From Puniceicoccales bacterium (GTDB taxonomy: Bacteria > Verrucomicrobiota > Verrucomicrobiia > Opitutales > UBA9783), in the NCBI GenBank assembly GCA_031266455.1, contig JAISBA010000004.1, positions 9,814 to 73,813 of the forward strand: 64,000 nt of DNA, in the 5' to 3' direction. This document shows, piece by piece, positions 15,371-37,625 of this stretch. The notes under the pieces are model-generated. The model did no database searches. It was not told the DNA's origin and saw nothing but the letters and a program-made list of their open reading frames with translations. Both the position numbers and the translations under genes were made by a program. Position 1 is the stretch's first letter, and each line of letters opens with the position of its first letter.

Positions 15371-16786
15371 ATGAAGATTTATTTAATGGGAATCTGCGGC
15401 ACTGCCATGGCTCACGTAGCCTTATTGCTCAAAGAATTAGGGCATTCAATCGTAGGCAGCGATACGCAATTTTTTGATCCTATTGCCGACCTGCTCGTGA
15501 AAAATCAGATAGAAACCTACACAGGATTCGATGTGCAGCGACTACAAACATTAAAACCCGATTGTATCATCGTGGGGAATGTGATCTCTCGTGGAAATCC
15601 AGAAATTGAATATTTACTCAACGAACCCATTTGTCCCCTTTACTCTTTCCCACAATTTTTAGAACAATACATTATTCCGCAGCGTCCAACTTTTGTTGTA
15701 ACGGGAACCCACGGCAAAACTACCACAACCGCCCTATTAACCTACCTGTTAAAGCAGTTTTGTAACCCAGGCTACCTGATTGGAGGATTACCCAATAATT
15801 TTGAACATGGTGCTTCTTTGGGCGACGCGAAAGCTCCATTTGTATTGGAAGGCGACGAATACGATACGGCATTTTTTGATAAAAAAAGTAAATTTTTTCA
15901 CTATTGGCCGCATACGCTCATCATTAACAACATCGCATTTGACCACGCAGATATTTTTGACAACCTCAAATCCATTCAACGTACATTTTACCAACTGACA
16001 CGTATGGTCCCTTCGCACGGACACATCGTTATGAATGGCGACGACCCGAAAGTGATGGAATTACTTCCATGCGATTGGACGCATACGCATTGCGTAGGGT
16101 TTGAAAATCAAAATGAATGGCAAATTAAAAACTTTACAGACACTCTCCATGGTAGTCAGTTCGACTTATACCAATCGGAAACATGCATCTTTGCCAATAT
16201 TTGTCTCCCTTTATTGGGCCGATTTAATGCCCACAACGCCGCCTTAGCAATCGTTGCCTGTTACGTGAATCAACATACCGCCATAGATATGCAACGCCTT
16301 ACGCTTTTCTTGGGTGTTCGCCGGCGTCAATCCATGCTCTTCGAGTCCGAACAATTGACAATACTGGAAGATTTTGCCCACCACCCAACCGCCATACAAT
16401 CCATGCTGGAAACGCTCAAATTACATTATCCACACCATTACTTGATTGCCTGCTTTGAACCCGCGTGTAACACCAGCGCATCTACCTGGTTTGCGCAACA
16501 AGCTTACCCAACTTTTTATCGCGCCGATGAAGTTTGGATTGCTCCACGAAAAGCAAACATCTACTGCGACCAATTTATTCAACCTTTAATACCCATGGAT
16601 TCTGCTCAAGTTAGGCAAACATTACAACAAAACGGGATTAAGGTAAATACATTCGATTCACTCAATGAACTTATTGCCCGCATTGAAGGATTGACACCCA
16701 TGGCCCCCACACTTTTATGCTGCTTTTCAAATGGCCGACTGTCCACTTTATTGGCCGATATGCAACCTAGAAAGCAGAAGCACTAA
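15371..16786 (+). CDS. mpl: UDP-N-acetylmuramate:L-alanyl-gamma-D-glutamyl-meso-diaminopimelate ligase (murein peptide ligase)
   Basis: The N-terminus MKIYLMGICGTAMAHVALLLKELGHSIVGSD, then GNVISRGNPEIEYLL and VTGTHGKTTTT, track E. coli Mpl closely (ILGICGTFMGGLA...GHEVTGSD, GNAMTRGNP, GTHGKTTT). A MurC paralogue cannot be fully excluded. Confidence 0.8.
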   Translation: MKIYLMGICGTAMAHVALLLKELGHSIVGSDTQFFDPIADLLVKNQIETYTGFDVQRLQTLKPDCIIVGNVISRGNPEIEYLLNEPICPLYSFPQFLEQYIIPQRPTFVVTGTHGKTTTTALLTYLLKQFCNPGYLIGGLPNNFEHGASLGDAKAPFVLEGDEYDTAFFDKKSKFFHYWPHTLIINNIAFDHADIFDNLKSIQRTFYQLTRMVPSHGHIVMNGDDPKVMELLPCDWTHTHCVGFENQNEWQIKNFTDTLHGSQFDLYQSETCIFANICLPLLGRFNAHNAALAIVACYVNQHTAIDMQRLTLFLGVRRRQSMLFESEQLTILEDFAHHPTAIQSMLETLKLHYPHHYLIACFEPACNTSASTWFAQQAYPTFYRADEVWIAPRKANIYCDQFIQPLIPMDSAQVRQTLQQNGIKVNTFDSLNELIARIEGLTPMAPTLLCCFSNGRLSTLLADMQPRKQKH

Positions 16787-24424: not shown

Positions 24425-26959
24425 TCACATTTCAGAAGAAACCAACAGGGTATGAGAAAGATCCGATTGTAAATACACTTTGGATCGCTCAAAAAGTTCT
24501 TCTAAGGATACACTATCGATGGCTTTTGCATAATTCAACCAGGCATCTTGAGGTAAATCAAACAACTCATTGATGCCGGCGTAAAATGCCTTTTTGGCGA
24601 TTGTTTGCAAACGTGTTTGCTGGCTCACTTTAAGATGCGATCGACATAGGTCAAATTCTTTAGAAGATATCTGACGGTCCAAAACACGTTGCGTCGCTTT
24701 GAATATTTCTGCTTCAACTGTCTTCAAATGGGATGCCTGAGTACTTGCAAACAAACACAACATACCTCGATTTAATCCCGTTAAACGCGTGGCTCCAACC
24801 GTATAAGCCAAACCTAATTTCTCCCTGACTTCGATAACAAATTGGCTCGACAAGCCATTGAATAATTCTTCCAAATAGTCGGCCACATAATAGTCTTTTG
24901 AACCTATACCTGCCATTGGGTAAGCCTGGAAAACCATCGATTGCTCTTTGTTTAATTGGCATTCGCAGTACCGTTCGGAAGTAAAAAAGATTTCATCGGA
25001 CACTTTTTCAAAACAATTTTCCGAAATTCCATCACCGATGGGCTCCAATAATTTTATTAACTCATCCGTAGGCAGCGGACTGACCGCCGATATGACGCAA
25101 TTGGGGCCAACAAAAATTTTTCTAAAATAATGCCAACAGTGTTCCAATCGCAGCGCTTTTACGTCGTCCTCAATCCCATACTGACCTACGGCGTAGGGAT
25201 GTTGTCCAAAAAATTGATGACGCATTTTTTTAAATCCCACATAAAATACATCATCCATCATCTCCTGAATGGAAGCCAGTTGAGAAGCTTTTTCAATTTC
25301 AAATGTTTCCTCTTTAAATCGAGGCATACGCAGCGCTTCCCCCAATAAATGACATCCCATAGCCGTGTTTTGGGGTAAAGATTCAAAAGCCAATCCTATG
25401 TGATTAATCCCCGTAAAACTATTAAACTGGCCTCCTATGGCGTCAACGGCTTCCGCAATTTCACGTGCCGTATGCTTTTCGGTATCTTTCATCAACAAAG
25501 AAGCCACCAAATGCGAAATACCTCGTTGATGTTCCGGTTCGTACAAAGCCCCCCCCAAACTGAGTACCTGCACGTGCGTTTTTGGGAAAGATGGATTATA
25601 CTGCATCACCAAACGTACGCCATTGGGTAAGGTTATCGATTCCACAGGCTGCGTACGTATCTCCGTAGATTTTTTAAAAAAAACCTTTTCCAATGCTTTT
25701 GGCTCCAAAGATACTTTGGTGCAAGTTGCTGGCTTTAAATATTTGCTCACAATTGCCTTTACACTTTTTGCATCCAATTGTTTCAATTGTTCCAAATAGT
25801 GCTTCGAGTACTGCAGATCTCCCAGGCAGGTGTCAGCCCATCCTAAATGGTGAGCTTGCCCCGATACCGTTTTTTGAGTATCTATTTCCGATACAATTGC
25901 TTGCTTAAGCGCCTTCTGCACGTGCTTTGTTTCAATAGCTGCTTCCGCCATACACTGCAAATTTTTCGATAAAAATTCCTCCACGCAAGCACGTTTTTCT
26001 CCATCACATACGTACTGTATCCAAAATAATCCTTGATCAGCCATCCAGGTGGATACATCGATGGAATAAACGTATCTTAACTCTTCTCTCAATTTTTGAT
26101 ACAGCAGCGAGCTGTCACCGCAACCCAGTACATTGGATAAAACTTGTAACTTAGCTCCATCCTTGTGACCCAACCCTGGAATTTTAAATGCCAACACTCC
26201 ACGTACCAATTGGTAGTCTCCATAAAAACGTTCCACCCTTTCCGCCATTTGGAAAGGTTCTCGAGTAATTAAAACCGGTTGCAAACTTTTTGGCAAACAG
26301 GTGGAAAAATAATGATTCACCCTTTCTTGAATCCATTCAAACGACAAATTACCCACAATAACCAACGTCATGTTATTGATGGGATAGCGCTTACGCCAGT
26401 ATTCAACCAAATCTTCACGCGTCAATTGTTCAAAAATACTTTTAATGCCGATGATGGGGAATCGATAGGGATGCTTACGAAATGCGTTTTCAAATACCAC
26501 TTGATTGAGTCGATCCTCCGGATCATCGTTGCACATGTCGATCTCACGCAAAATCACCTTTTTTTCCTTAAGCATTTCTTCGGATGGAAATGTGGGATGC
26601 AACAGCATATCGCTTAAAATATCCAAACCCAATTCCGCAGATTCCGATGAACCATCGTAAGTATAAACGGTTCTATCAAACGACGTGTAGGCATTGAGAC
26701 TGGCTCCCGAGGCTTGTGCTTCCGAAAAGATATCCGCGTACGTACGCCGCTCCGTCCCTTTAAAAACCATATGTTCCACAAAATGAGAAATACCCGCACC
26801 CAAATATTTGTCTTCGTGAATACTGCCTGTTTTTACCCACGCTTGAATTGCAACCAAACCGGTGTGATCAACGGGTAAAAAAATGACCTTGAGTCCATTG
26901 GAAAGTGCAAAGCAACACGGATGATAGATCAAAAATTCTTCAAATGAACACATATCCAA
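24425..26959 (-). CDS. M16-family zinc peptidase, double (fused active + inactive M16 halves)
   Basis: HxxEH zinc motif in ISHFVEHMVFKGT, then EREVILREI-like KEKKVILREI. A second half has a degenerate site (ISHLVASLLMKDT). The track start is TTG at 26959, and ATG at 26953 is an alternative. Confidence 0.8.
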   Translation of the reverse strand: MDMCSFEEFLIYHPCCFALSNGLKVIFLPVDHTGLVAIQAWVKTGSIHEDKYLGAGISHFVEHMVFKGTERRTYADIFSEAQASGASLNAYTSFDRTVYTYDGSSESAELGLDILSDMLLHPTFPSEEMLKEKKVILREIDMCNDDPEDRLNQVVFENAFRKHPYRFPIIGIKSIFEQLTREDLVEYWRKRYPINNMTLVIVGNLSFEWIQERVNHYFSTCLPKSLQPVLITREPFQMAERVERFYGDYQLVRGVLAFKIPGLGHKDGAKLQVLSNVLGCGDSSLLYQKLREELRYVYSIDVSTWMADQGLFWIQYVCDGEKRACVEEFLSKNLQCMAEAAIETKHVQKALKQAIVSEIDTQKTVSGQAHHLGWADTCLGDLQYSKHYLEQLKQLDAKSVKAIVSKYLKPATCTKVSLEPKALEKVFFKKSTEIRTQPVESITLPNGVRLVMQYNPSFPKTHVQVLSLGGALYEPEHQRGISHLVASLLMKDTEKHTAREIAEAVDAIGGQFNSFTGINHIGLAFESLPQNTAMGCHLLGEALRMPRFKEETFEIEKASQLASIQEMMDDVFYVGFKKMRHQFFGQHPYAVGQYGIEDDVKALRLEHCWHYFRKIFVGPNCVISAVSPLPTDELIKLLEPIGDGISENCFEKVSDEIFFTSERYCECQLNKEQSMVFQAYPMAGIGSKDYYVADYLEELFNGLSSQFVIEVREKLGLAYTVGATRLTGLNRGMLCLFASTQASHLKTVEAEIFKATQRVLDRQISSKEFDLCRSHLKVSQQTRLQTIAKKAFYAGINELFDLPQDAWLNYAKAIDSVSLEELFERSKVYLQSDLSHTLLVSSEM

Positions 26960-27019
26960 CTTATTTCATTGTCTCAAAAAAAGCCACTCCTGTAAAGTTG
27001 AAAACCTCCTTTTATAATT

Positions 27020-27053
27020 CAAAAAATAAACCCTACGTGTTCTCGTAGGGTTT
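27020..27053 (-). terminator. Rho-independent terminator downstream of the 139-aa Cys/His-rich gene
   Basis: The minus-strand transcript reads AAACCCTACG-AGAACA-CGTAGGGTTT followed by ATTTTTT. This is a perfect 10-bp stem (27028-27037 / 27044-27053) starting 21 nt after the stop codon. Confidence 0.75.
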
Positions 27054-27073
27054 ATAAATTTTGTAAGTCTTCG

Positions 27074-27493
27074 TTACCTATTCGGGCAATCCGGCGTGTG
27101 CACCATTCCTTGTCCTGTGAATATCATTGGACAATGTGGACAATGGTGACTGCGATCAGGATCATTCGGGCAATTTGGACCATGACCTCTTGACATAGGA
27201 ACATGACAATACGGACAATCACGATCAGGATCATTCAGGCAATCCGGCATATGGTTTCCTTCTATCATACCACAATGTGGGCACATCGCATGAGGATCAT
27301 TCGGACAACCCGGCATATGATTTCCCATTGACATGGGAACGTGGCAATGTGGACACATCGCATAAGGATTTTGAGGGCAATCCCATTCATCGTGCCCTTC
27401 TTGACCACAATGCGGACATACTACAGCCAGTCCCGGTAATGTCGCCATTAATTTAAATGCAATTAAACAAAGATATTTTTTCATGCAGTTCAT
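27074..27493 (-). CDS. Cys/His-rich tandem CX2C...H...C (zinc-knuckle-like) protein with putative signal peptide, 5 units
   Basis: The 139-aa ORF starts MNCMKKYLCLIAFKLMATLPGLAVV. Five units follow: CPHCGQEGHDEWDC (exact CX2CX4HX4C), CPHCHVPMSMGNHMPGC, CPHCGMIEGNHMPDC, CPYCHVPMSRGHGPNC, CPHCPMIFTGQGMVHTPDC. It ends in CPNR. Two paralogues lie at 33.6 and 34.1 kb. Its own terminator and a conserved upstream region support a real gene. The start is ATG 27493 or ATG 27484 (MKKYL). Confidence 0.7.
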   Translation of the reverse strand: MNCMKKYLCLIAFKLMATLPGLAVVCPHCGQEGHDEWDCPQNPYAMCPHCHVPMSMGNHMPGCPNDPHAMCPHCGMIEGNHMPDCLNDPDRDCPYCHVPMSRGHGPNCPNDPDRSHHCPHCPMIFTGQGMVHTPDCPNR

Positions 27494-27560
27494 CTTGTTA
27501 ACTTTTTTAATATTAGCAAGCTTTTTGTTAATCTTTTTTATAAATTACTTTTACTAAATT
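27494..27560 (-). repeat. Conserved upstream (promoter-bearing) segment 'P' of the Cys/His-rich gene family, copy A
   Basis: Copy A reads cttgttaacttttttaatattagcaagctttttgttaatcttttttataaattacttttac. It recurs at about 85-90% identity by eye at 33777-33840 and 35610-35670. It contains TATAAA on the gene strand. Confidence 0.7.
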
Positions 27561-27775
27561 AAAACTTTAAAATAAGTTAAATATTCATTAAACACAAATT
27601 ATTTTTCTTACGTTACAACGCCCACCCTAACGCTTATTGAACATTTTTAATGCTTTACCTAAACGCCATATCGCTTTTCTACTTCACATTTCATATTGCA
27701 GTCCGTACATCAATAATCGAAGCTTTCGTTGAAAGACCGTAGGTTTATGAGGAAACTTTTACACATCTTGCTTCA

Positions 27776-29248
27776 TTATTGGGATAAGAGCTCCCTTAAA
27801 AGGCGGTCCACCTCACTTATAGGAACCTTTCCTTGCGTATGCTTTACAACTTGCCCTTTTAATACATTCAAAGCCTTTTCCTTTCCAGAACGAAACTCTT
27901 CGGCAGGTTTGGGGAAAGCATCTATAATTTCCGCACACATTATCTTTAAGGCATCCACATCTACAGAAATTTCTAACCCTTTATCTTTCACAATCTTCTG
28001 TGGATCTTCGCCTGTCTTAAAGGTAGCATCAAATACCTCTTTTGCGCTCTGTTTAGATAGGATACCTGAATCCACCAACTCTACCAACGCTGCAACTTGG
28101 CGAGGATCCATTTTCAAATTCTTCCAGGCTTGATGCATATCTTCTGCGGCAAGTTCTCTCAATAAATCATTTACAATCCAATTGGCAATACCCAGAGGAT
28201 TTTTAGCATAAAAGCCCAAAGCGGATTCAAAAAAATCGCTCAATCTTTTATCGGGGCAAATGACGGAAGTCACCGTATACGGCAATTGTAACGTCCGCAA
28301 ATAACGTTCCTGCTTGTCGAAAGGAAACTCCGGCAAAGTTTTTTTCTGAGCCTGAATATCTGCTTCCGATAAACAAATTGGACATAAATCTGGATCCGTA
28401 AAATAACGGTAATCGTGGGCATCTTCTTTGGATCGCATGACAAAACTCTCAGACTTATCGGCATCCCAGCGTCGCGTCTCCTGCACAACGGCTTGCCCCC
28501 GTTCAATGGCGTACAGTTGTCGATTGATTTCGTGTCGAACACCGTTGCACACCCCCGAAATCGAATTCAAATTCTTCAACTCAACTTTGGTCCCTAAGCT
28601 GGTTGTTCCTTGAGGCCTTACGCTGATGTTTGCATCGCACCGCAATTGTCCTTTTTCCATATCGCAATCGGAAGCATCCACGTACTGCAAATGCATGACC
28701 AAAGATTTTAAATAGGCAAAAACCTCTTCCGGAGAATGCATATCGGGCTCGGATACAATTTCGATAAGCGGTGTCCCCGCACGATTGTAATCGATCCAAG
28801 ATATTTGCCCCAAATGGGTTAATTTACCTACATCCTCTTCCAGATGAATTCGATTCAAAGCTACCTTACGATGTTTTCCTTGAATATTTCTGGCAGGACC
28901 CTCAAGTTCAATTTCGACATGTCCACCGAGACATAAGGGCTGATCGAATTGGGAAATTTGATAATTTTTAGGAGAATCTGGGTAAAAATAATTTTTACGA
29001 TCCCACTTGCATTGGCGTGCAATCTCGCAGTCAAATACCAATCCCACCTGCACCGTTTTCAAAACGGCTGCCTTATTGAGTACGGGTAAAGAGCCTGGTA
29101 ATCCCAAAACAACTTCATCCACCAGGGTATTCGGCTCAACACCATAACGATAAGGTGCTCGCGTAAACAACTTCGATTGCGTCTTTAGTTGAACGTGAAC
29201 TTCTAACCCAATAACAGCTTCGTATTGCGTCATATTAAAACAGATCAA
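27776..29248 (-). CDS. gatB: Asp/Glu-tRNA(Asn/Gln) amidotransferase subunit B
   Basis: YEAVIGLEVHVQL start, a typical GatB core and a C-terminal YqeY-like tail. It overlaps the gatA stop by 4 nt. Confidence 0.95.
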   Translation of the reverse strand: MICFNMTQYEAVIGLEVHVQLKTQSKLFTRAPYRYGVEPNTLVDEVVLGLPGSLPVLNKAAVLKTVQVGLVFDCEIARQCKWDRKNYFYPDSPKNYQISQFDQPLCLGGHVEIELEGPARNIQGKHRKVALNRIHLEEDVGKLTHLGQISWIDYNRAGTPLIEIVSEPDMHSPEEVFAYLKSLVMHLQYVDASDCDMEKGQLRCDANISVRPQGTTSLGTKVELKNLNSISGVCNGVRHEINRQLYAIERGQAVVQETRRWDADKSESFVMRSKEDAHDYRYFTDPDLCPICLSEADIQAQKKTLPEFPFDKQERYLRTLQLPYTVTSVICPDKRLSDFFESALGFYAKNPLGIANWIVNDLLRELAAEDMHQAWKNLKMDPRQVAALVELVDSGILSKQSAKEVFDATFKTGEDPQKIVKDKGLEISVDVDALKIMCAEIIDAFPKPAEEFRSGKEKALNVLKGQVVKHTQGKVPISEVDRLLRELLSQ

Positions 29249-30711
29249 AGATTCGGAATTTTAAGGTTAAAGGGATGATGCTTTTCAAATGTGTACGCCA
29301 TCGACAACAAAGTTGTTTCTTCCCACGGTTTTCCAATGAGCTGGCATCCTATGGGTAACCCTCTATTGGTAAAACCGCACGGAAAAGAAATTGCAGGTAA
29401 TCCAGCCAAATTAACGGAAATTGTATAAAGGTCGCTCAAGTACATTGCCAATGGATCGCTCGTCTTTTCTCCTTTTTTAAAAGCCGGCACAGGTGAAGTA
29501 GGTGTCACTAAGACATCTACTTCCGCGAATGCACGCATAAAATCATTGTAAATAAGCCGCCTTACTTTTTGAGCTTTGCCGTAAAACGCGTCGTAGTAAC
29601 CACTACTAAGGACGTAAGTTCCCAATAAGATGCGACGCTTAACCTCTTCACCTAACCCTTCGCTCCTGGACTGATCGTAAACTTCATCAATATTCTTTGC
29701 ACGTGGACTACGATAAGTGTAACGAATGCCATCGTAACGGGCTAAATTGGAAGATGCTTCAGCGGTGGCGATGATATAGTAAACGGGAATCGCATATTCC
29801 AGGGAGGTTAAATGAACCGGTTTTACAATGTACCCTTGAGCTTCATAAAAATGAATTGCCTTTTCAACCGAAGATTTTACTTCCGAATCCAAGCCTTCTC
29901 CAAAATACTCTTCCGGAACTCCCAATATCCATTTTTTCCCTTCACTGGACTGTACAGCGGCTAAGTAATCCGGAACATGCATGCGTGCACACGTCGAATC
30001 TTTAGGATCGGCTCCCGATAAAACTTGCAAAAGGGCCGCAACCCCTCCTGCGGTGCGCGCCAACGGACCCGCTTGGTCCAATGAGCTTGCATAGGCAACC
30101 ATTCCATAGCGACTGATGCATCCGTAAGAAGGCTTCAATCCTACAACTCCGCACATGGAAGCCGGCTGACGGACAGATCCCCCCGTATCCGTTCCCAATG
30201 ACAAAGAGACCTCGCCTGCGGCAACGGCAGCCGCACTTCCAGAACTACTACCCCCCGGGACTCTATCTAAGTCCCACGGATTACTCGTCACTTGAAAAGC
30301 AGAATTCTCGGAAGAAGAGCCCATGGCAAATTCATCCATATTAAGTCTTCCCCACAAAACAGCTCCGGCATCCTTTAATTTTTTCACCACGGTTGCATCA
30401 TAGGGACTCACAAAATGTTCCAATATACGACTTCCACAGGTCAAACGTTGACCTTTTTCGGCAAAAATATCCTTAAGTCCCACCGGCACACCGTCTAGTC
30501 TACCGAGACTTTGTCCTCTGGAACGACGCACATCGGATGCTTCAGCTTCAGCAAGCGTCTTTTTTTCATCAAAATTCAAAAATGCCTTTAGGGATTTATC
30601 AATCGCGTACGTGCGTGCGATGAAAGCCTTTGTTAACTCAACGGATGAGAATTGTTTTTTCTCCAATCCCTCACTTAATTGTTCAAACGTACCCCAAATA
30701 AGGTTTTCCAT
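29245..30711 (-). CDS. gatA: Glutamyl-tRNA(Gln) amidotransferase subunit A
   Basis: Amidase signature GGSSSGSAAAVAAG and GTDTGGSVRQPAS. Confidence 0.95.
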   Translation of the reverse strand: MENLIWGTFEQLSEGLEKKQFSSVELTKAFIARTYAIDKSLKAFLNFDEKKTLAEAEASDVRRSRGQSLGRLDGVPVGLKDIFAEKGQRLTCGSRILEHFVSPYDATVVKKLKDAGAVLWGRLNMDEFAMGSSSENSAFQVTSNPWDLDRVPGGSSSGSAAAVAAGEVSLSLGTDTGGSVRQPASMCGVVGLKPSYGCISRYGMVAYASSLDQAGPLARTAGGVAALLQVLSGADPKDSTCARMHVPDYLAAVQSSEGKKWILGVPEEYFGEGLDSEVKSSVEKAIHFYEAQGYIVKPVHLTSLEYAIPVYYIIATAEASSNLARYDGIRYTYRSPRAKNIDEVYDQSRSEGLGEEVKRRILLGTYVLSSGYYDAFYGKAQKVRRLIYNDFMRAFAEVDVLVTPTSPVPAFKKGEKTSDPLAMYLSDLYTISVNLAGLPAISFPCGFTNRGLPIGCQLIGKPWEETTLLSMAYTFEKHHPFNLKIPNL

Positions 30712-30712
30712 G

Positions 30713-31003
30713 CTATAAAACCCGTGGGACTACAATTTGTTTTTCTTTCATTTCCGGAGCGTTGCGAGATAAAAAATCAACGCCATCTTCGGGGTATTCC
30801 GGAATATCTTCGGCCCAAAAATTACCCTCGTGAGAAAAAGAATGCACCCTCGGTTCTAAATTTTCCACACCTGCTTCGCATACCTTTGAACAGTATCCAA
30901 CAATATCTTGCAATTGATTTAAAAACGTTTCACGCTTATGCCCGTCGAGCTCAATACGGGCTAACTTAGCCAAATGATCGATATCGATCTCCGAATGCAT
31001 CAT
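30713..31003 (-). CDS. gatC: Asp/Glu-tRNA amidotransferase subunit C
   Basis: 96 aa with IDHLAKLARIEL (GatC N-terminal pattern). It sits immediately upstream of gatA, and its start overlaps the pheT stop by 4 nt. Confidence 0.85.
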   Translation of the reverse strand: MMHSEIDIDHLAKLARIELDGHKRETFLNQLQDIVGYCSKVCEAGVENLEPRVHSFSHEGNFWAEDIPEYPEDGVDFLSRNAPEMKEKQIVVPRVL

Positions 31004-33414
31004 ACAGCCTGCTTTCTTATTTGATAGGTATAATCTTTTTCCAAACAGCCCTGCAATTTTTCAAAAACATCGTTCACTTGCTCATCCGTCAGGGTTCCCA
31101 TATGTGAATCAAATACGAGTGAAAATGCAAGACTTTTTTTCTTACTATGTGTCGTATCATAGAAAACGTCAAAAATGTTTACACATTTCAATTGCATCGG
31201 ATGTTGCATGATTTTTCGAACCGATTTTTCAATATTTTGGCGCACCGCCTCAGCCAATGTATCCGCGTCTACCAACAGAGCTAAGTCCTTACGCACAGCG
31301 GGGTATTCCGAATAGATCTGAAACCATTTGTGATCTTTTATGTGTAGTTTGTCAGGCATCCAACAACATTCGCCCGCCAAAACAACCGCTTCTTTAAACC
31401 ATCGACGCGTAAAATTTAAATTCACGTATCCAAAATTGGCTTCAAAGCCGCGCTGTTCCCATGCACCTACGTTTCCGGCGTAATCTTTCTGCCACAAGGC
31501 ATCCACCTGTTTTGTAGTACTTTGCATTACTTCGTTCGTCCCCCCACAAGCCACCATCATCGAACGCACCCATGCCTGCGCATCGTAAAAGTCAAATGAA
31601 GGGACTTCCTTCCACCGTTTAACGTCGGCCGGACATACCACGAACGCACTCGCAAACAACTCGCATAATTGGCCATCCTTTTGAACTCGGAATATGCGGC
31701 CCGATTCAAATAAACGTTCCACATCGTTGCCGTGGTGTCTGTTATCGCACAAAGCATTCAACAGTCCCGGAATGAGAGAAAAACGTAAACATGCATGCTC
31801 AGCACTTAACGGATTGAATACCTTCAATGCTTCTTTCGGTATTAAATTTTCGCCCAAAGAAGCCGGTTGCAAACTATCCGTGTAGCATTCTAAAAATCCG
31901 TGTGCGGATAAAAGTTGCGCGTGTCTCTTTTTCAAGAGATATGTATTTGAAGTACTCAGGCAACATGCGGGACCTTCAGGCATTTTAGAAGGGATAGAGT
32001 CGGTTCCAAACAAACGCAGAAACTCTTCAACCAAATCCACTCCCTGCGCAACATCGGCCCGATGGGTAGGGATTGCTACTTCCCAATGTTCATTGTCACA
32101 AGGTACAACCTCAAAACCTAATTTTTTTAGGGTGTCGACAAAAAATTTCGGATCCACATGAAAACCTAACAATCTTTCCACCTGAGAAAATTCAAATTTT
32201 ACTTTACGCAACGAAACGGCATCGGATCCCGCAACCACACACTGCTCGCATACAATTTTATCGTCCATGGATAACAATAATTGGACGGCCCTGCACAAAG
32301 CTTCTCGCGCATGCGTTTTATCCACGTAGCGTTCAAAGCGGTAGGAGCTATCTGAACTTAAATCCAATTTGCGAGAGGACATGCGTATACTATCCGCTTG
32401 AAAATGAGCACTTTCCAAAAAAACAGTCGTTGTGGTTGTTTTAATTTCACTTTCCTCACCTCCCATAATACCCGCAATCGCTAATGGCTTATCGCGGTCT
32501 GCAACAAGTAAAGTATTTTCCGGCAAAGACCTCGTAACTCCATCCAACGTTCTAATACATTCTCCCATACGCGCACCCCGTACACAAATACGATCCCCGC
32601 GTATGAGATCCCAATCAAAAGCGTGTAACGGTTGACCTCTTTCCAAGAGTACAAAATTGGTCACATCGACCACGTTATTAACGGGACGTAAGCCCACCGA
32701 TTGCAGTGTATTTTTCAACCAATCCGGACTAGGCCCTACGTGCACGTTTTTCAAAAGGCAACCCGCATAATAATCGCATCCATCCGAATTGAGTTCCACC
32801 GATATATTTTTTATGGGAGGCAAATCCAGCAAACATTCGGGATAAATAATGGGTAAATCCAGCGCAGCACTCAATTCTCTCGCTATTCCCAAATAACTTA
32901 AACAATCCCCACGATTTGAGGTAATGGATAGATCCATAACCGTATCGCTTTGATCCACAAAAAGCTTTGCCAAAGGCTCTCCCACATTTGGATGCAAGTC
33001 ATTGAGAATGTACAAACCTGCACTCTCCTTACCCAACCCCAATTCGTTGGCACTGCACATCATACCGCAAGATTCAACATCTCGTATGCGTGTCTTTTTT
33101 AAAAGGGTCTCTCCCAATTGCGCACCCGGTAAAGCAACGGGGACCACATCTCCTTCTTTAAAATTTGTCGCTCCGCAAACAATTTGCAACGAACGATTTC
33201 GCCCAATATCTACCTCACAAACACTTAGTCGATCGGCATGGGGATGTTTTTCCTTTTTTAGAACACGACCTACAACCAAATCACCCTTGCCGCAATATCC
33301 AATCGCCTCCACATTTTCTACTTCGAAACCCAGTCCTATCAAGATTTCGCACAATTCCATCGAAGACTGCTTAAAATGGACATACCATCTTAAGGTATTT
33401 AAAGCGATTTTCAT
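31000..33414 (-). CDS. pheT: Phenylalanine--tRNA ligase beta subunit
   Basis: 804 aa. It has an N-terminal tRNA-binding (EMAP/OB) domain with VVGRVLKKEKHPHADRLSVCEVDIG, B3/4 and B5 regions, and a C-terminal FDX-ACB-like domain. No pheS is adjacent. Confidence 0.9.
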   Translation of the reverse strand: MKIALNTLRWYVHFKQSSMELCEILIGLGFEVENVEAIGYCGKGDLVVGRVLKKEKHPHADRLSVCEVDIGRNRSLQIVCGATNFKEGDVVPVALPGAQLGETLLKKTRIRDVESCGMMCSANELGLGKESAGLYILNDLHPNVGEPLAKLFVDQSDTVMDLSITSNRGDCLSYLGIARELSAALDLPIIYPECLLDLPPIKNISVELNSDGCDYYAGCLLKNVHVGPSPDWLKNTLQSVGLRPVNNVVDVTNFVLLERGQPLHAFDWDLIRGDRICVRGARMGECIRTLDGVTRSLPENTLLVADRDKPLAIAGIMGGEESEIKTTTTTVFLESAHFQADSIRMSSRKLDLSSDSSYRFERYVDKTHAREALCRAVQLLLSMDDKIVCEQCVVAGSDAVSLRKVKFEFSQVERLLGFHVDPKFFVDTLKKLGFEVVPCDNEHWEVAIPTHRADVAQGVDLVEEFLRLFGTDSIPSKMPEGPACCLSTSNTYLLKKRHAQLLSAHGFLECYTDSLQPASLGENLIPKEALKVFNPLSAEHACLRFSLIPGLLNALCDNRHHGNDVERLFESGRIFRVQKDGQLCELFASAFVVCPADVKRWKEVPSFDFYDAQAWVRSMMVACGGTNEVMQSTTKQVDALWQKDYAGNVGAWEQRGFEANFGYVNLNFTRRWFKEAVVLAGECCWMPDKLHIKDHKWFQIYSEYPAVRKDLALLVDADTLAEAVRQNIEKSVRKIMQHPMQLKCVNIFDVFYDTTHSKKKSLAFSLVFDSHMGTLTDEQVNDVFEKLQGCLEKDYTYQIRKQAV

Positions 33415-33422
33415 GCCTCGAA

Positions 33423-33451
33423 AGTAAAATCTTTGAGAACAATTTTGTCAA
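33423..33451 (-). promoter_or_regulatory. Candidate sigma70-type promoter for pheT-gatCAB (TTGACA-N17-TTTACT)
   Basis: The minus strand reads cgcgTTGACAaaattgttctcaaagatTTTACTttcgaggcATG. The -35 is a perfect consensus and belongs to repeat U. The -10 is weak (4/6) and lies only 8 nt from the ATG, implying a near-leaderless mRNA. Sequence-pattern call only. Confidence 0.3.
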
Positions 33452-33494
33452 CGCGAATTTAAATTGTAAACTATTCGAAAATTTCCTAATCAAC
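33445..33494 (-). repeat. Repeat 'U' copy 1 (50 bp); other copies at 33843-33894 and 35675-35726
   Basis: Copy 1 is ttgtcaacgcgaatttaaattgtaaactattcgaaaatttcctaatcaac. Copy 3 is ttgtcaacgcgaatttaaatcgtaaactattcgaaaatttcccaatcaac. Copy 2 is ttgtcaacgtgaatttaaatcgcaaaccactcgaaagttttccaatcaat. Confidence 0.85.
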
Positions 33495-33533
33495 TAAAAA
33501 ACACTCCTGTACAGTTGAAAACCTCTCTATAAT

Positions 33534-33567
33534 TCAAAAAACAAACCCTACAAAAGATGTAGGGTTT
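33534..33567 (-). terminator. Rho-independent terminator downstream of the frameshifted Cys/His-rich paralogue
   Basis: The minus strand reads AAACCCTACA-TCTTT-TGTAGGGTTT followed by GTTTTTT. It is the homologue of the 27020-27053 hairpin, with a compensated stem change (G:C to A:T). Confidence 0.7.
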
Positions 33568-33589
33568 ATAAATCTTGTAAGCCTTCACA

Positions 33590-33776
33590 TTACCTATTCG
33601 GGCAACCAGGCCTATGATGTCCTCCACGTTCACCACACTGTGAGCACATACGATCAGGACAAATTGCTTTCATTATGCCCATCGTGACCACAATAGGGAC
33701 ATGTCATAGCCATTCCTGGCAGTGTCGCCATTAATTTAAATGCAACTAAATAAAGATATTTTTTCATATGGCTCAT
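33590..33776 (-). pseudogene. Frameshifted two-unit paralogue of the Cys/His-rich zinc-knuckle-like family
   Basis: My translation gives (MSH)MKKYLYLVAFKLMATLPGMAMTCPYCGHDGHNESNLS* and then, in another frame, CPDRMCSQCGERGGHHRPGCPNR*. Removing one T from the run at 33661-33663 (gene strand AATTTG) restores CPYCGHDGHNESNC, an exact CX2CX4HX4C unit, and one continuous ORF. The length is not a multiple of 3. Confidence 0.7.
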
Positions 33777-33819
33777 TCTGTTAATCTTTTTAATATTAGC
33801 AAGCTTTCTATTAATCTTT

Positions 33820-33849
33820 TTTATAGATTACTTTTTACTTACTTGTCAA
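33820..33849 (-). promoter_or_regulatory. Candidate promoter TTGACA-N18-TATAAA of the frameshifted paralogue
   Basis: On the minus strand, TTGACA is at 33849..33844 and TATAAA at 33825..33820. The spacing and boxes are the same as the 35652-35681 copy. Confidence 0.45.
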
Positions 33850-33894
33850 CGTGAATTTAAATCGCAAACCACTCGAAAGTTTTCCAATCAATTT

Positions 33895-33954
33895 CTACCA
33901 ACGAATACGAACACATCCATTCTGACCCACTAAACGTTCTTGCGTCTTGTAATC
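33895..33954 (-). pseudogene. 60-bp fossil copy of the 3' end of the 35727-37625 gene
   Basis: The reverse complement translates to DYKTQERLVGQNGCVRIRW*. The intact gene ends DYKTQERLAGQNGCVRIRW*. It directly follows repeat U copy 2, as in the intact locus. Confidence 0.85.
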
Positions 33955-34040
33955 AATTGGGAAAAATGACCTAGTCCACTGGAAAATGTAAAACAATACG
34001 GGTTATAGGTCAAAAATTCTTCAAACGAACATACGTCCAA
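33951..34040 (-). pseudogene. About 90-bp fossil copy of the 5' end of the M16 peptidase gene (source 26868-26959)
   Basis: The reverse complement TTGGACGTATGTTCGTTTGAAGAATTTTTGACCTATAACCCGTATTGTTTTACATTTTCCAGTGGACT... matches M16 TTGGATATGTGTTCATTTGAAGAATTTTTGATCTATCATCCGTGTTGCTTTGCACTTTCCAATGGACT... The ATG is lost (ATATGT to GTATGT) and there are indels further in. Confidence 0.8.
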
Positions 34041-34112
34041 CTTGTTTTATTGTCTCAAAAAAACCAGTACTGTACAGCTAAAAACCTCCTTTTATAAATT
34101 TTGTAAGCCTTA

Positions 34113-34511
34113 TTACCTATTCGGACACCTAGGCTTATGGTTTCCTCCAAATTTACCACACTGCGGACACTTCGAATTCGGGTGAGTACAATCTCTTGCA
34201 TTATGGTTTCCTTCACAATATGGACATGTATAGCGAGAACACCTAGGCTTATGGTTTCCTCCAAATTTACCACACTGCGGACACATCGAATTTAGATGAA
34301 TACAAGCTCTTGCATCATGGATTTTTCCACAATATGAACATGTAAAGCGAGGACACCTAGGCATATGGTTTCCTCCAAGTTTACCACACTGCGGACACTT
34401 TGAATTCGGATGGACACAAAATTCTGCAGCATGTGTTCCTCCACAATATGGACATGTATAGCGAGAACACCTAGGCTTATGGTTTCCTCCAAATTCAAAA
34501 CACTCTGGACA
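34113..34511 (-). repeat. Intragenic tandem repeat, 114-bp (38-aa) period, about 3.5 copies
   Basis: The protein units are CPECFEFGGNHKPRCSRYTCPYCGGTHAAEFCVHPNSK, CPQCGKLGGNHMPRCPRFTCSYCGKIHDARACIHLNSM, CPQCGKFGGNHKPRCSRYTCPYCEGNHNARDCTHPNSK and CPQCGKFGGNHKPRCPNR*. The DNA motif acacctaggcttatggtttcctccaaatttaccacactgcggaca recurs every 114 bp. Confidence 0.9.
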
Positions 34512-35546
34512 CATCGAATGGACGCAAACTCCCGCAGCATGCCTTTCTTGATCACAATATGGGCATATATAATGAGGACAACAGGGCATATGTCCAACTT
34601 CACCGCACTGCGGACACATGTAGCCCGGACTATTTGGACAATCCGGCCTATGGTTTCTTCCAAATTCACCACACTGCCGACACTTACTTATTGGACAATC
34701 GAACACATGAAATCCTGCCATGGGCCTAAGGCAATGCGGACACATGGGCTCACCGTAGTATGGGTAAATCGGACACCCGCGCACATGAGGTCCTGTCATG
34801 AGAACACGACAATGCGGACATATGGACACCTTGTCGTGTAGGCAGCTCGGACACCCGGATGCATGAGGTCCTGCCATGGGAATATGACAACTCGAACACA
34901 TGGACACATTGTAGTATGGGCAATCGGGCGTATGAGGTCCTGTCATGGGCTCAAGGCAATGCGGACATTCGCGATTAGGATCATTCGGACAATCCGGTAT
35001 ATGTCTTTCCGATATGGGAACATGACAACGCCGACACATGAGCACATTGTAGTATGGGCAATCGAGCGCATGAGGTCCTGTCATGGGCTCAAGACAATGC
35101 GGACATTTGCGATTAGGATCATTCGGGCAATCCGGTATATGACTTCCCAATATAGGAATATTACACTGCTGGCATATCGGATTAGGATAATCAGGACAAT
35201 CTCTTACATTATGAATTTCTCCACAATGTGAACATGTACAGTCAGGACAAGCAGGCCAATGGTTTCCTCCAGATCTACCACAGTACGAACATCTTGAACA
35301 AGTATTCATTCTTTCATGATCTTTCGGATATTCATAGGAAAGATAATCGGACCTATGGCTTTTATAGGAAAGACAATTGAAACTATAGCTTTCTTTATGG
35401 CCACCACAGTGCGAACATCTTGCATTTGGATGGGCACAATCCCTTGCCTCATGCCCTCTTTGACCACAATACGGACACGCATAGTTAGGACAACAGTGCT
35501 TATGGTTAGGTACACATTCACCACAATGCGGACATACTTCAGCCAT
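34113..35546 (-). CDS. Giant Cys/His-rich array of about 24 CX2C...H...C zinc-knuckle-like units (477 aa); leader start codons lost, possibly decaying or cytoplasmic
   Basis: The intact 477-codon ORF has 72 Cys by my hand count. It includes exact CX2CX4HX4C units (CPYCGQRGHEARDC), CX2CX6HX3C units (CPQCGKFGGNHKPRC) and CX2CX7HX3C units (CPHCLEPMTGPHALDC). It ends in CPNR like both paralogues. The region homologous to the signal peptide is in frame upstream but both ATGs are ATA. Confidence 0.6.
   Translation of the reverse strand: MAEVCPHCGECVPNHKHCCPNYACPYCGQRGHEARDCAHPNARCSHCGGHKESYSFNCLSYKSHRSDYLSYEYPKDHERMNTCSRCSYCGRSGGNHWPACPDCTCSHCGEIHNVRDCPDYPNPICQQCNIPILGSHIPDCPNDPNRKCPHCLEPMTGPHALDCPYYNVLMCRRCHVPISERHIPDCPNDPNRECPHCLEPMTGPHTPDCPYYNVSMCSSCHIPMAGPHASGCPSCLHDKVSICPHCRVLMTGPHVRGCPIYPYYGEPMCPHCLRPMAGFHVFDCPISKCRQCGEFGRNHRPDCPNSPGYMCPQCGEVGHMPCCPHYICPYCDQERHAAGVCVHSMCPECFEFGGNHKPRCSRYTCPYCGGTHAAEFCVHPNSKCPQCGKLGGNHMPRCPRFTCSYCGKIHDARACIHLNSMCPQCGKFGGNHKPRCSRYTCPYCEGNHNARDCTHPNSKCPQCGKFGGNHKPRCPNR
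34899..35174 (-). repeat. Intragenic tandem repeat, 138-bp (46-aa) period, 2 copies
   Basis: CQQCNIPILGSHIPDCPNDPNRKCPHCLEPMTGPHALDCPYYNVLM is followed by CRRCHVPISERHIPDCPNDPNRECPHCLEPMTGPHTPDCPYYNVSM. The C..CHVP.S..H.P.CPNDP signature is shared with the 139-aa paralogue. Confidence 0.9.
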
Positions 35547-35651
35547 TCCTGGCAGTGTCGCTATTAATTCAAATGCAACTAAATAAAGATACCTTTTTAT
35601 GCCGTCTATTTTGTTAGCTTTTCTAATATTAGTAAGCTTTTTGTTAATCTT

Positions 35652-35681
35652 TTTATAAATTATTTTTTACTTATTTGTCAA
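35652..35681 (-). promoter_or_regulatory. Candidate promoter TTGACA-N18-TATAAA upstream of the 477-aa Cys/His-rich gene
   Basis: The minus strand reads cgcgTTGACAaataagtaaaaaataattTATAAAaag. The -35 is at 35681..35676 and the -10 at 35657..35652. It is conserved in the 33.8-kb copy. Confidence 0.45.
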
Positions 35682-35726
35682 CGCGAATTTAAATCGTAAA
35701 CTATTCGAAAATTTCCCAATCAACTT

Positions 35727-37625
35727 CTACCAACGAATACGAACACATCCATTCTGACCCGCTAAACGCTCTTGCGTCTTGTAATCCTTTTGTCCATTAC
35801 CTCCATTTCCAAATTGACCTAACATAGCAACCTGCTGCCCGGCATAATGACTCTCACTACCCCTTGTTGCCGGTACACCCATAGCTCCTCCATCACAACG
35901 AATTTCCAAAGAATGAACGTGGACCGTAGTTGCCTCACCTGCAGCTAGCTCTGAGGCTTGCCCGACATGGATGGAAACAATACCTCCACTTTGTACACCC
36001 TCGATTTTCTCCATTCTAAAAGTACCCGAACCTCCACCGTTTCCACTGATGCTAAAATCCGTCAAATATTGTACATCGAGATAGATTCTCATATTTTTTT
36101 GCGATTTTGTCCTCGCATCCATCTTTGACATCCAACTGTTCTCATTTACTTGATTCTCTGTAACGTTATGAGAAAAAGAAACACCGTAAGAATAGACGTA
36201 GTCTTTCTGTTTTCTGTCATTGTATATCATGTTTAATACAAAATTTCTAGTTTCCTTATCTTTAAGTTCCACGCATTGATTAAATCGAGGTAGGTTATGA
36301 GGGTTATCAGTTCTATAGACCAAAAATTCATTACTTGTTGCTGGAAACCTACTCATACGGCCGGTAACATTGGTGATGCGCGCTGGACCTGTCACATATA
36401 TAGGTGTTTTAGACCATATCCATCCTCTCCATGAATGATATTCTAAATTTAAATCACTCGTCTGTTCCACTGGGGTCCCCCAATCCCGATATTGTAAAGC
36501 AGGACTACCGCTTCCGCCTGCACCGATCGCTTCAATCGTAATGGTATGCACGCCTTCCGGAATCGCCCAAAAGTATTTCCCGGGCTGATCAAAAACAACT
36601 TGCCCATGATTTTGTTCGACAACAATATCGGTTGCTTCACAAACATCCTCCTCCATTGATATTTTAAGATCTTCCAACAAATGATCGTACGCTTCACTAC
36701 ATTTGTGCAATTTTTCTAGTTCACACGCAACATTTTGCTCGCGCATGGAAACGTACAACCAAAGTGTAAAAAAAGAATCTACATCGATGCAAAAATGCTT
36801 GTCTTTACAATTACACCACGTGACGTGTGGAGAGAACAAATTTAAATAAGGTTCGCAAAGGGGGTCCAAACGTTGCATTAATTTAACAACGTTACTCGCA
36901 ACATCATCAAATTCGGATAACCGCCTAAAGGCATCCCATGCAATATGACTTATCTTAAGTTTAGCTGAAAACTTGCAAGGGATGAGGATAAAAGTAGAAG
37001 ACTTACACATCAAAGGAAAAGACCAGGTATCGGTTGGGTGCAAAGATAAATCACCGCATTTATCCATAAGCAGATCATTAAAAAAATGCGCCGTGTAGTT
37101 CAGAACATTTAGGAAATCAGCTGCGGATAATAATGAAAGCGCTTCCATTAAGTGCTGTCGATGCGCCCGTATCGGTTCAATAAAATACTGATTCCAAATA
37201 TCGTGCACATTTTGGATATCTTTTTGCGTAATATCCAATGGAAGCCCTACTAAACAATCTTCGTTATCCTGATAGGCATAATGTTGTAACACGCAGTCAG
37301 GTTGCTTTATCAGATGTGGTAATGTGTGCTGAAAATAGGGATATCCCCATACATAATTGGCAATGCTACCACACACCCAATAACTCCCAAACTGAACGGC
37401 AAATGGGGGCGGAGATTTGTATTTTCGGTACAAATTCAGAACGTTCGGCAATTCTTCTGCGGAAAAAGACTTTCTACAAAAAATTTCTGCAGGAATGTAT
37501 AAAAAACCTTTATCTTTTTGATTATTTGAATCTTTTAAAACAAAAGTCGGACAATGGGGAAATGCAAACAGCATTTCGGTAGCCAAACACAAAGCTACAG
37601 TAAAACATTTACTGTACTTAAACAT
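35727..37625 (-). CDS. Hypothetical exported protein; unknown N-terminal about 340 aa plus C-terminal region with GAGGSGS / GNGGGSG / GNGGNG glycine clusters
   Basis: 632 aa. The N-terminus MFKYSKCFTVALCLATEMLFAF is hydrophobic and leader-like. The C-terminal part contains GKYFWAIPEGVHTITIEAIGAGGSGS, FSISGNGGGSGTF and GQFGNGGNGQ, and ends GQNGCVRIRW. This pattern is reminiscent of glycine-rich beta domains of phage, viral or surface fibre proteins. I recognised no catalytic motif. Confidence 0.6.
   Translation of the reverse strand: MFKYSKCFTVALCLATEMLFAFPHCPTFVLKDSNNQKDKGFLYIPAEIFCRKSFSAEELPNVLNLYRKYKSPPPFAVQFGSYWVCGSIANYVWGYPYFQHTLPHLIKQPDCVLQHYAYQDNEDCLVGLPLDITQKDIQNVHDIWNQYFIEPIRAHRQHLMEALSLLSAADFLNVLNYTAHFFNDLLMDKCGDLSLHPTDTWSFPLMCKSSTFILIPCKFSAKLKISHIAWDAFRRLSEFDDVASNVVKLMQRLDPLCEPYLNLFSPHVTWCNCKDKHFCIDVDSFFTLWLYVSMREQNVACELEKLHKCSEAYDHLLEDLKISMEEDVCEATDIVVEQNHGQVVFDQPGKYFWAIPEGVHTITIEAIGAGGSGSPALQYRDWGTPVEQTSDLNLEYHSWRGWIWSKTPIYVTGPARITNVTGRMSRFPATSNEFLVYRTDNPHNLPRFNQCVELKDKETRNFVLNMIYNDRKQKDYVYSYGVSFSHNVTENQVNENSWMSKMDARTKSQKNMRIYLDVQYLTDFSISGNGGGSGTFRMEKIEGVQSGGIVSIHVGQASELAAGEATTVHVHSLEIRCDGGAMGVPATRGSESHYAGQQVAMLGQFGNGGNGQKDYKTQERLAGQNGCVRIRW

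Follow-up and report, generated by a model that had tools for sequence, protein, structure and literature searches.

Loss of the leader start codon in the largest of three duplicated CCHC-knuckle-like genes in a termite-gut Puniceicoccales genome

The stretch of 64,000 nucleotides (nt) analysed here, referred to as the window, covers positions 9,814 to 73,813 of contig JAISBA010000004.1 and belongs to a metagenome-assembled genome (MAG) of an uncultured termite-gut Puniceicoccales bacterium [GenBank assembly GCA_031266455.1], with a G+C content of 42%. Three paralogous genes for Cys- and His-rich repeat proteins, designated copies A, B and C, were identified by open reading frame (ORF) listing and direct reading, and all are on the minus strand (Table 1). 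Copy C has an intact ORF of 477 codons, and ATA is present where A and B carry the two ATG codons of an N-terminal leader. The question raised by this locus is whether C is made without its leader, is made with it from an unusual start, or is no longer made at all. The favoured answer, to which we assign a probability of roughly 0.45, is that C would be translated from AUG 35546, yielding an array of about 22 CCHC units that has no leader and stays in the cytoplasm.

The 5′ sequences quoted for the three copies in the initial annotation were reproduced exactly by minus-strand reading and a three-copy alignment. Copy A begins ATG AAC TGC ATG AAA AAA TAT CTT (27493 downward) and B begins ATG AGC CAT ATG AAA AAA TAT CTT (33776 downward), and C reads, from 35609 to 35544, ATA GAC GGC ATA AAA AGG TAT CTT TAT TTA GTT GCA TTT GAA TTA ATA GCG ACA CTG CCA GGA ATG. 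Both leader ATGs are ATA in C and lie in frame (35609-35607 and 35600-35598), as had been described, and the reported K to E and M to I changes were also found (GAA 35570-35568; ATA 35564-35562), the second being a third ATG to ATA change. Over these 66 positions the leader of C differs from that of B at 11 and from that of A at 14. The frame above ATG 35546 is open for 40 codons up to TAA 35669-35667, and the earlier observation that it holds no ATG, GTG or TTG stands. The bounding stop was misidentified as a TAG, and the TAG at 35729-35727 terminates the upstream gene for a 632 amino acid (aa) protein, in the same frame as C. Near-cognate codons within the open stretch comprise four ATA, three ATT and one CTG.

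Leaders were compared in seven sequences, namely A, B, C and four orthologues (L004, L005, L006 and L008). Codon 1 is ATG in six of the seven and ATA in C alone, and the ATG of codon 22 is also kept in six. The orthologue comparison had been proposed in the initial annotation as a means of recognizing the ancestral state; codon 1 proved to be ATG in all four orthologues, and a conserved non-AUG start was not found in any of them. The two neighbouring ATG to ATA changes had been considered a striking coincidence. This view is not supported, as two of the three such changes are at positions that vary (ATA or GTG) in otherwise normal orthologues and only that at codon 1 is unique to C. Judged from the alignment, Met, Ile and Val are all tolerated at codons 4 and 16 of the leader. 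Among third-position changes of a Met codon, ATG to ATA is the sole transition, and it is taken to be mutationally favoured in this AT-leaning genome. To abolish translation of the leader, a neutral Met4 to Ile change and then a single G to A transition in codon 1 suffice. The genome uses ATA as a regular Ile codon (11.8 per 1000, and aligned to Ile in pheT of L004), hence no recoding is involved and reassignment of ATA was ruled out.

The six leaders other than that of C differ mostly at synonymous third positions, with proportions of synonymous differences (pS) of 0.15-0.66, proportions of nonsynonymous differences (pN) of 0.04-0.15 and pN/pS of about 0.2-0.3. This synonymous-substitution pattern indicates that the 5′ region of the family is coding, and that the leader of the orthologues is a translated and constrained peptide, with pS of 0.3-0.6 and pN of 0.06-0.11. 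The description of the 21 codons of C ahead of ATG 35546 as a former leader is borne out by this constraint on their homologues. A riboswitch or leader-RNA account of the conserved 5′ region was dropped after an Rfam search over 26500-36500 found no RNA family. Read by eye, the leaders follow the layout MKK / YLYLVAFKLMATL / P(G/V)(M/L)A, then xVC, in which a basic n-region (MKK) is followed by a hydrophobic stretch (YLYLVAFKLMATL) and a Pro/Gly break, with V/G-x-A ahead of the first Cys; the h-region is interrupted by Lys (Thr in L008). In A, B and the orthologues the leader is therefore predicted to be a Sec-type signal peptide processed by signal peptidase I, and ATG 35546 would be two residues ahead of the putative cleavage site (..PG-M-A/xVC, with the slash marking cleavage). 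A lipoprotein (signal peptidase II) leader was rejected, as there is no lipobox [LVI][ASTVI][GAS]C; the residues ahead of the first Cys are A-V-V, A-M-T, A-V-I or A-E-V, placing V, T or I at position -1.

The L004 orthologue of A, from MAG Pcl387_bin165, carries a 7-nt tandem duplication, AAAATGA, directly after leader codon 4 (L004 positions 15915-15975). This frameshifts the leader into a stop, and the knuckle part could be started only at a GTG or ATG right ahead of the first Cys. The arrangement would represent either a second, independent leader disruption in this family or an assembly error.

The array of C contains 72 Cys and 41 His, and neither a frameshift nor a premature stop was found across its 477 codons, in contrast to B, which is frameshifted. 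Tandem DNA repeats of 114, 138 and 78 nt share 71-88% identity. Among the three 114-nt units the whole-unit ratio of nonsynonymous to synonymous rates (dN/dS) is about 0.8-1.1, and the amino acid is changed in none of 27 Cys/His codon pairs versus 35 of 87 other pairs (Fisher P = 2e-5). In the youngest duplication, that of 138 nt, all three changes in codons that specify Cys or His in both copies are synonymous; nonsynonymous and synonymous sites in these ligand codons are in the ratio 24:3, giving a neutral probability of about (3/27)^3 = 0.0014. Constraint on the array is thus entirely on the Cys/His ligands, and diversifying selection at the non-ligand positions was not significant (pN/pS 1.2-2.5, binomial P > 0.3). 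The array is intact as the initial annotation claimed, and it looks selected, with Cys/His codons changed only synonymously between young units.

When neutral substitution was simulated on the C ORF, the probability that no stop arises was 0.43 at 2% divergence, 0.20 at 4%, 0.04 at 8% and 0.017 at 10%. With its many TGY and TAY codons, the 477-codon ORF is unlikely to have stayed intact through neutral drift at the higher of these divergences. The leader of C has about five nonsynonymous nucleotide changes at otherwise conserved positions, including the K to E change in the hydrophobic core, versus none in the leader of B. At least five such changes would be expected with a probability of about 0.002 at the family-typical omega of 0.2, and their number is compatible with neutrality. 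Constraint on the leader seems to have been absent during much of the history of C while the ligands of the array were preserved, and this combination favours a functional, leaderless product.

Translation from AUG 35546 could have arisen as follows. Copy A, encoding a signal-peptide-bearing protein of zinc-knuckle-like units, would have been duplicated into the spacer upstream of pheT to give C, the array of which then expanded to about 22 units. Translation of the leader would later have ceased. At codon 4, and also at codon 16, ATG may have given way to ATA by drift, a Met to Ile replacement that is conservative and also seen in orthologues, before a single G to A transition took out the initiator ATG. 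The only canonical start left would be AUG 35546, two residues ahead of the former signal-peptidase site, and its product would be almost exactly the mature domain, kept in the cytoplasm. Use of this AUG is suggested by its place as the sole canonical start in the frame. A stronger version, in which removal of all three in-frame ATGs above Met 22 was itself adaptive, moving the protein from a secreted or periplasmic location to the cytoplasm with a subsequent expansion of about five-fold that served some new function inside the cell, for example metal buffering or nucleic-acid binding, is considered unlikely.

Several observations weigh against translation from AUG 35546. The principal alternative is that C is a young pseudogene, in which loss of the initiator after a neutral Met4 to Ile change silenced a gene for a secreted protein, and the array is too young to have acquired stops or frameshifts; this is a possible, if somewhat doubtful, explanation. 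Signals for initiation and expression have been lost from C, in that codons 1 and 4 are both ATA and the terminator has been deleted, with the promoter hexamers kept. The downstream ATG is in a poor context: local RNA structure computed over -30 to +30 around the start is -10.8 kcal/mol at ATG 35546, a tighter fold than at 93% of 41 real starts (mean -6.9) and near the average for arbitrary or internal ATGs (-8.7), with the native starts of A and B very open (-3.2 and -2.6). ATG 35546 therefore resembles an internal Met pressed into service and not an optimised start. The surroundings of C are duplication debris, consisting of the frameshifted B and fragments of the M16 peptidase and 632-aa genes, and the frameshift in B and the disabled leader of L004 indicate that this family decays readily. 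Non-ligand positions of the array are at a pN/pS of at least 1, and one unit is degenerate, the Cys/His pattern being gone between 35306 and 35410 on the minus strand (C residues ~45-80; HKESYSFNCLSYKSHRSDYLSYEYPKDHERMNT). Loss of the start codon cannot be dated, and if it occurred within the last 2% of divergence or less the intact ORF is unremarkable (P = 0.43), the chance of no stop being still 0.2-0.43 after just 2-4%. The leader and ligand-codon tests involve small site counts, and an exact look-up in the public gene collection returned no record for C, either as 477 aa or as 398 aa.

Three findings argue against a simple silencing of C. The roughly five nonsynonymous changes in its leader, compared with none in B, suggest a long and not a brief lack of constraint; at a similar divergence, changes in the Cys/His codons of the array have been synonymous only; and a 1.4-kb ORF with 72 Cys codons is still open. 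The degenerate stretch could be a linker or reflect local decay. It contains a 30-nt tandem repeat at 35334-35392, and a hidden frameshift was rejected, as the other two frames have neither a Cys motif nor a knuckle.

A poor Shine-Dalgarno (SD) arrangement at ATG 35546 was part of the argument in the initial annotation. The ccAGGA abutting this ATG is present as described. However, the argument carries no weight, because an SD-like motif precedes only 5 of 42 confident genes (long ORFs) in the window, and none was found at the ATGs of A or B. The lineage appears to rely on SD-independent initiation. The ribosomal-protein genes of the window likewise have no SD-like motif.

It is improbable that C is made with its leader at a low level from a near-cognate start (ATA 35609 or 35600, ATT or CTG) that throttles production of a huge secreted array. 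The leader is in frame and stop-free from 35666 onward, the ATA codons at 35609 and 35600 are weakly structured (-5.8 and -6.1 kcal/mol, values typical of real starts) and the charge of the n-region is retained (K-R). However, the six other family members all have ATG at codon 1, the ATA codon is in normal use for Ile, and the K14 to E change places an acidic residue in the hydrophobic core of a leader in which the changes look unconstrained. Initiation at ATA in Escherichia coli occurs at about 1% or less of the level at ATG. The three outcomes set out in the initial annotation remain a sound framing, with leaderless translation and silencing both still standing, and initiation at ATA finding no support given the ATG of the orthologues and the ordinary use of ATA for Ile.

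Least probable is an assembly or population artefact, in which short-read assembly of the MAG merged strain variants or repeat units into a chimeric leader or array of C and the true leader has ATG, for although the window is metagenome-assembled and the Logan assembly of SRR14710922 is interrupted to the left and right of C, leaving its 5′ end without a second witness, an A/B chimera cannot yield ATA codons that are in neither paralogue, the leader differs from both B and A (by 11 and 14 of 66 positions), the flanks of C are unique sequence collinear with relatives, and repeat units that are 71-88% identical can be assembled with long k-mers.

Table 1. Features of copies A, B and C and their surroundings (window coordinates).
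Feature	Position	Strand	Description
Vestigial leader of C	35547-35609	minus	21 in-frame codons (IDGIKRYLYLVAFELIATLPG), codon-for-codon homologous to the leaders of A, B and orthologues
ATA, leader codon 1	35607-35609	minus	Replaces the conserved initiator ATG; sole ATG to ATA change unique to C
ATA, leader codon 4	35598-35600	minus	Same position is ATA in L008 and GTG in L006
AGG (from AAA), K6 to R	35592-35594	minus	Leader of C
GAA, K14 to E	35568-35570	minus	Hydrophobic core of the former leader
ATA, leader codon 16 (M to I)	35562-35564	minus	Same position is ATA in L004
ATG, leader codon 22	35544-35546	minus	No other ATG, in whichever frame, comes between it and the presumed -10 box (35652-35657) upstream
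TAA, nearest in-frame upstream stop	35667-35669	minus	Bounds the start-free open stretch
Putative promoter of C	35652-35681	minus	TTGACA 35681-35676, 18-nt spacer, TATAAA 35657-35652; read from sequence
Copy C	34113-35546	minus	Intact 477-codon ORF from sole canonical start; ~22 CCHC-type units
40-nt deletion junction after C	34091-34100	minus	Removes the terminator hairpin 3′ of the stop codon
Duplication scars between C and B	33895-34040	minus	M16 5′ fragment joined to 632-aa gene 3′ fragment
Copy B	33590-33776	minus	Leader and both ATGs intact; single 1-nt frameshift near 33660-33668
Terminator of B	33541-33569	minus	Intrinsic hairpin
Copy A	27074-27493	minus	Ancestral-locus gene, 139 aa, leader MNCMKKYL..., 4-5 CCHC units; between gatB and M16 peptidase gene
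Terminator of A	27026-27055	minus	Intrinsic hairpin

B and C arose by lineage-specific segmental duplication, which placed the A cassette in the spacer upstream of pheT, because they are absent in relatives, fragments of the M16 and 632-aa genes lie nearby and the pheT spacer is in triplicate. Two relatives (L003 and L004) were recovered by a pheT scan of genome contigs; these are termite-gut-type Puniceicoccales assemblies with about 88% nucleotide identity, and in both of them pheT comes directly after the orthologue of the 632-aa gene, the two being separated by a spacer of ~75-85 nt and neither B nor C being present. An exhaustive HMMER search of 1.84 billion representatives gave four clusters, of which P0003 is the first ORF of the window's own B, and P0001, P0002 and P0004 are homologues on other contigs, all in the position of A between gatB and the M16 peptidase gene.

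The two gene fragments between C and B are fused head to tail and are scars recording the order of duplication. The M16 peptidase fragment (33930-34040) is the first ~25 codons of a gene present in full at 24425-26959, and the other fragment (33895-33996) is the last ~20 codons of the 632-aa gene, present in full at 35727-37625. The pheT spacer, of ~50 nt, is found in three copies on the minus strand (33440-33494, 33842-33894 and 35674-35726) ahead of pheT, B and C, respectively, and the copy ahead of B is far more diverged than that ahead of C. The 632-aa protein encoded upstream of C (35727-37625, minus strand) has a hydrophobic N-terminus and a Gly-rich C-terminal part. It has no significant match in Pfam or NCBIfam, and is kept in L003 (642 aa) and L004 (635 aa).

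The frameshift in B is in a T-run near 33661-33663, and the same frameshift is present in an independent Logan contig (L002). With the frame restored B would encode ~62 aa with two CCHC units. It resembles the first and last units of a C-type array fused together, with a perfectly conserved leader, and may derive from a longer array by internal deletion.

The spacer preceding pheT carries TTGACA, and the A-type cassette was inserted directly after this hexamer; B and C therefore appear to have captured the pheT-upstream -35 box. The putative promoter of C would thus combine a -35 element from the duplicated spacer with a -10 element from the A-type cassette. The same arrangement is found ahead of B, and the hexamers are intact for both copies. 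A promoter scan missed that of C, as the scan demands T at position 6 of the -10 hexamer. Downstream, a terminator hairpin with a 12-bp stem and T-run is conserved after A, B and the genes in L004 and L008. The 40-nt segment deleted after C lay between two copies of the short repeat TTATA, and with the terminator gone transcription of C could read through into B, towards pheT.

No Pfam or NCBIfam family was found for A, C or the orthologues, and the zf-CCHC model (PF00098) did not match the whole proteins A, C, P0001, P0002 and P0004. The best single unit (CPYCGQRGHEARDC) scores 17.4 bits against PF00098, below the gathering threshold of 20.8. The spacing C-X2-C-X4-H-X4-C is exact in 2 of the 21 units of C listed by a pattern scan and in one of four in A, and the remaining units have X2 / X2-X9 / X2-X6 spacing, with the ligand order C-C-H-C throughout. 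A profile of eight double units shows marginal similarity to NCp7 chains of human immunodeficiency virus 1 (HIV-1) (E = 6.6e-4 to 1.5e-3), and matches NCp10 of murine leukaemia virus (MLV), Air2 and the Xrn1 knuckle more weakly. With bacterial metallothioneins of the SmtA/BmtA type in mind, no Pfam or NCBIfam family matched C at E up to 10. By sequence, then, the units are CCHC-knuckle-like, below the threshold of the curated family. They probably form Zn(Cys3His) sites, and the zinc thiolate nature proposed for these sites in the initial annotation is plausible.

Distant matches to A (P0005, P0006 and P0007) are proteins of 500-1000 aa. In P0005 and P0007 an unrelated N-terminal domain precedes a C-terminal half made up of many tandem units of the CPECGGxxGxHKxxCSKY type, and these two proteins appear to represent a different lineage using a similar knuckle repeat. 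The family itself is undescribed, has no Pfam or NCBIfam model, and is so far seen solely in a few termite-gut Puniceicoccales assemblies. The verrucomicrobial 'Nucleococcus cluster' of termite guts includes intranuclear symbionts of gut protists (PMC8204192). An effector role for the family, via a lifestyle of that type, is speculation, and membership of this genome in the cluster is conjectural.

Housekeeping proteins of the window match two Logan contigs of SRR14710922 (L001 and L002) that are 100% identical to the window where aligned. These contigs flank C and end at window positions 33922 and 36766, and as they break short of the leader of C, it is present in the window's own assembly only. 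A look-up of the ORF of B matched just the short Logan contig. A scan of genome contigs with A as the query found no relatives. A degenerate DNA pattern for the leader, which recovers all known family loci, gave no matches in metagenome contigs, a collection apparently without these termite samples, and C together with its leader had no homologue at E <= 1e-3 in a database of 5.8 billion proteins. Exact look-up gave no record for A as 139 aa, nor for the 632-aa protein. A is on record from a Puniceicoccales bacterium MAG as a 136 aa protein called from the second ATG on a 102-kb contig [NCBI MDR1254549.1]. By comparison with orthologues the first ATG of A (window 27484-27493), and not the second used by NCBI, is the conserved one, because codon 4 is not ATG in L006 or L008.

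Expression of C from AUG 35546 would provide a clean natural case, in a bacterium, of a duplicate switching compartment by start-codon point mutations alone, with a large repeat expansion either at the same time or afterwards. Were the adaptive version true, it would represent bacterial neofunctionalisation by start-codon erasure in an orphan family of termite-gut Puniceicoccales. If C is a pseudogene, the locus records routine decay in a duplication-scarred region, and its value is mainly as an annotation caveat, given that automated gene calling would start a 477-aa protein at an internal Met. The analysis also flags a family of small, leader-bearing CCHC-knuckle-like proteins that is new to Pfam and NCBIfam.

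The units of C resemble the tandem CCHC knuckles of HIV-1 NCp7 and CNBP-like proteins in having Cys-X2-Cys...His...Cys in a tandem array, and the best of them (CPYCGQRGHEARDC and CPHCGQEGHDEWDC) have the exact X2/X4/X4 spacing and a G-x-x-G-H core, as in NCp7. Unlike canonical knuckles, most have longer loops, with X6-X8 ahead of the His. They also have Pro after the first Cys, unlike NCp7 (CFNC and CWKC in the alignment), where the residue at this position is a nucleic-acid-contacting aromatic. The ancestral proteins further differ from classic knuckle proteins in bearing an export leader of signal-peptide type. With respect to its start, C recalls infC, which begins with AUU, in having an AUN codon at the initiator position. 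However, the AUU of infC is conserved across species and regulatory, whereas the ATA is unique to one paralogue and the orthologues have ATG.

As in start-codon-loss pseudogenes of host-associated bacteria, C has a single initiator transition, a frameshifted paralogue nearby, gene fragments and a lost terminator, but unlike these its 1.4-kb ORF is intact, and the metal-ligand codons are under purifying selection in the youngest repeats. Relocalisation of a duplicate through loss of N-terminal targeting has been described mainly in eukaryotes. The locus is similar in that A keeps the leader and C has lost its translation with the mature part open and constrained, and in that a pre-existing Met near the cleavage site would become the start. 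It differs from the eukaryotic cases in that C is known from sequence alone, and in that a plain start-codon substitution in a bacterium takes the place of exon loss or an alternative promoter. Leaderless translation and pseudogene formation are both familiar evolutionary processes, and either would here have affected a single copy of an orphan gene that was duplicated recently.

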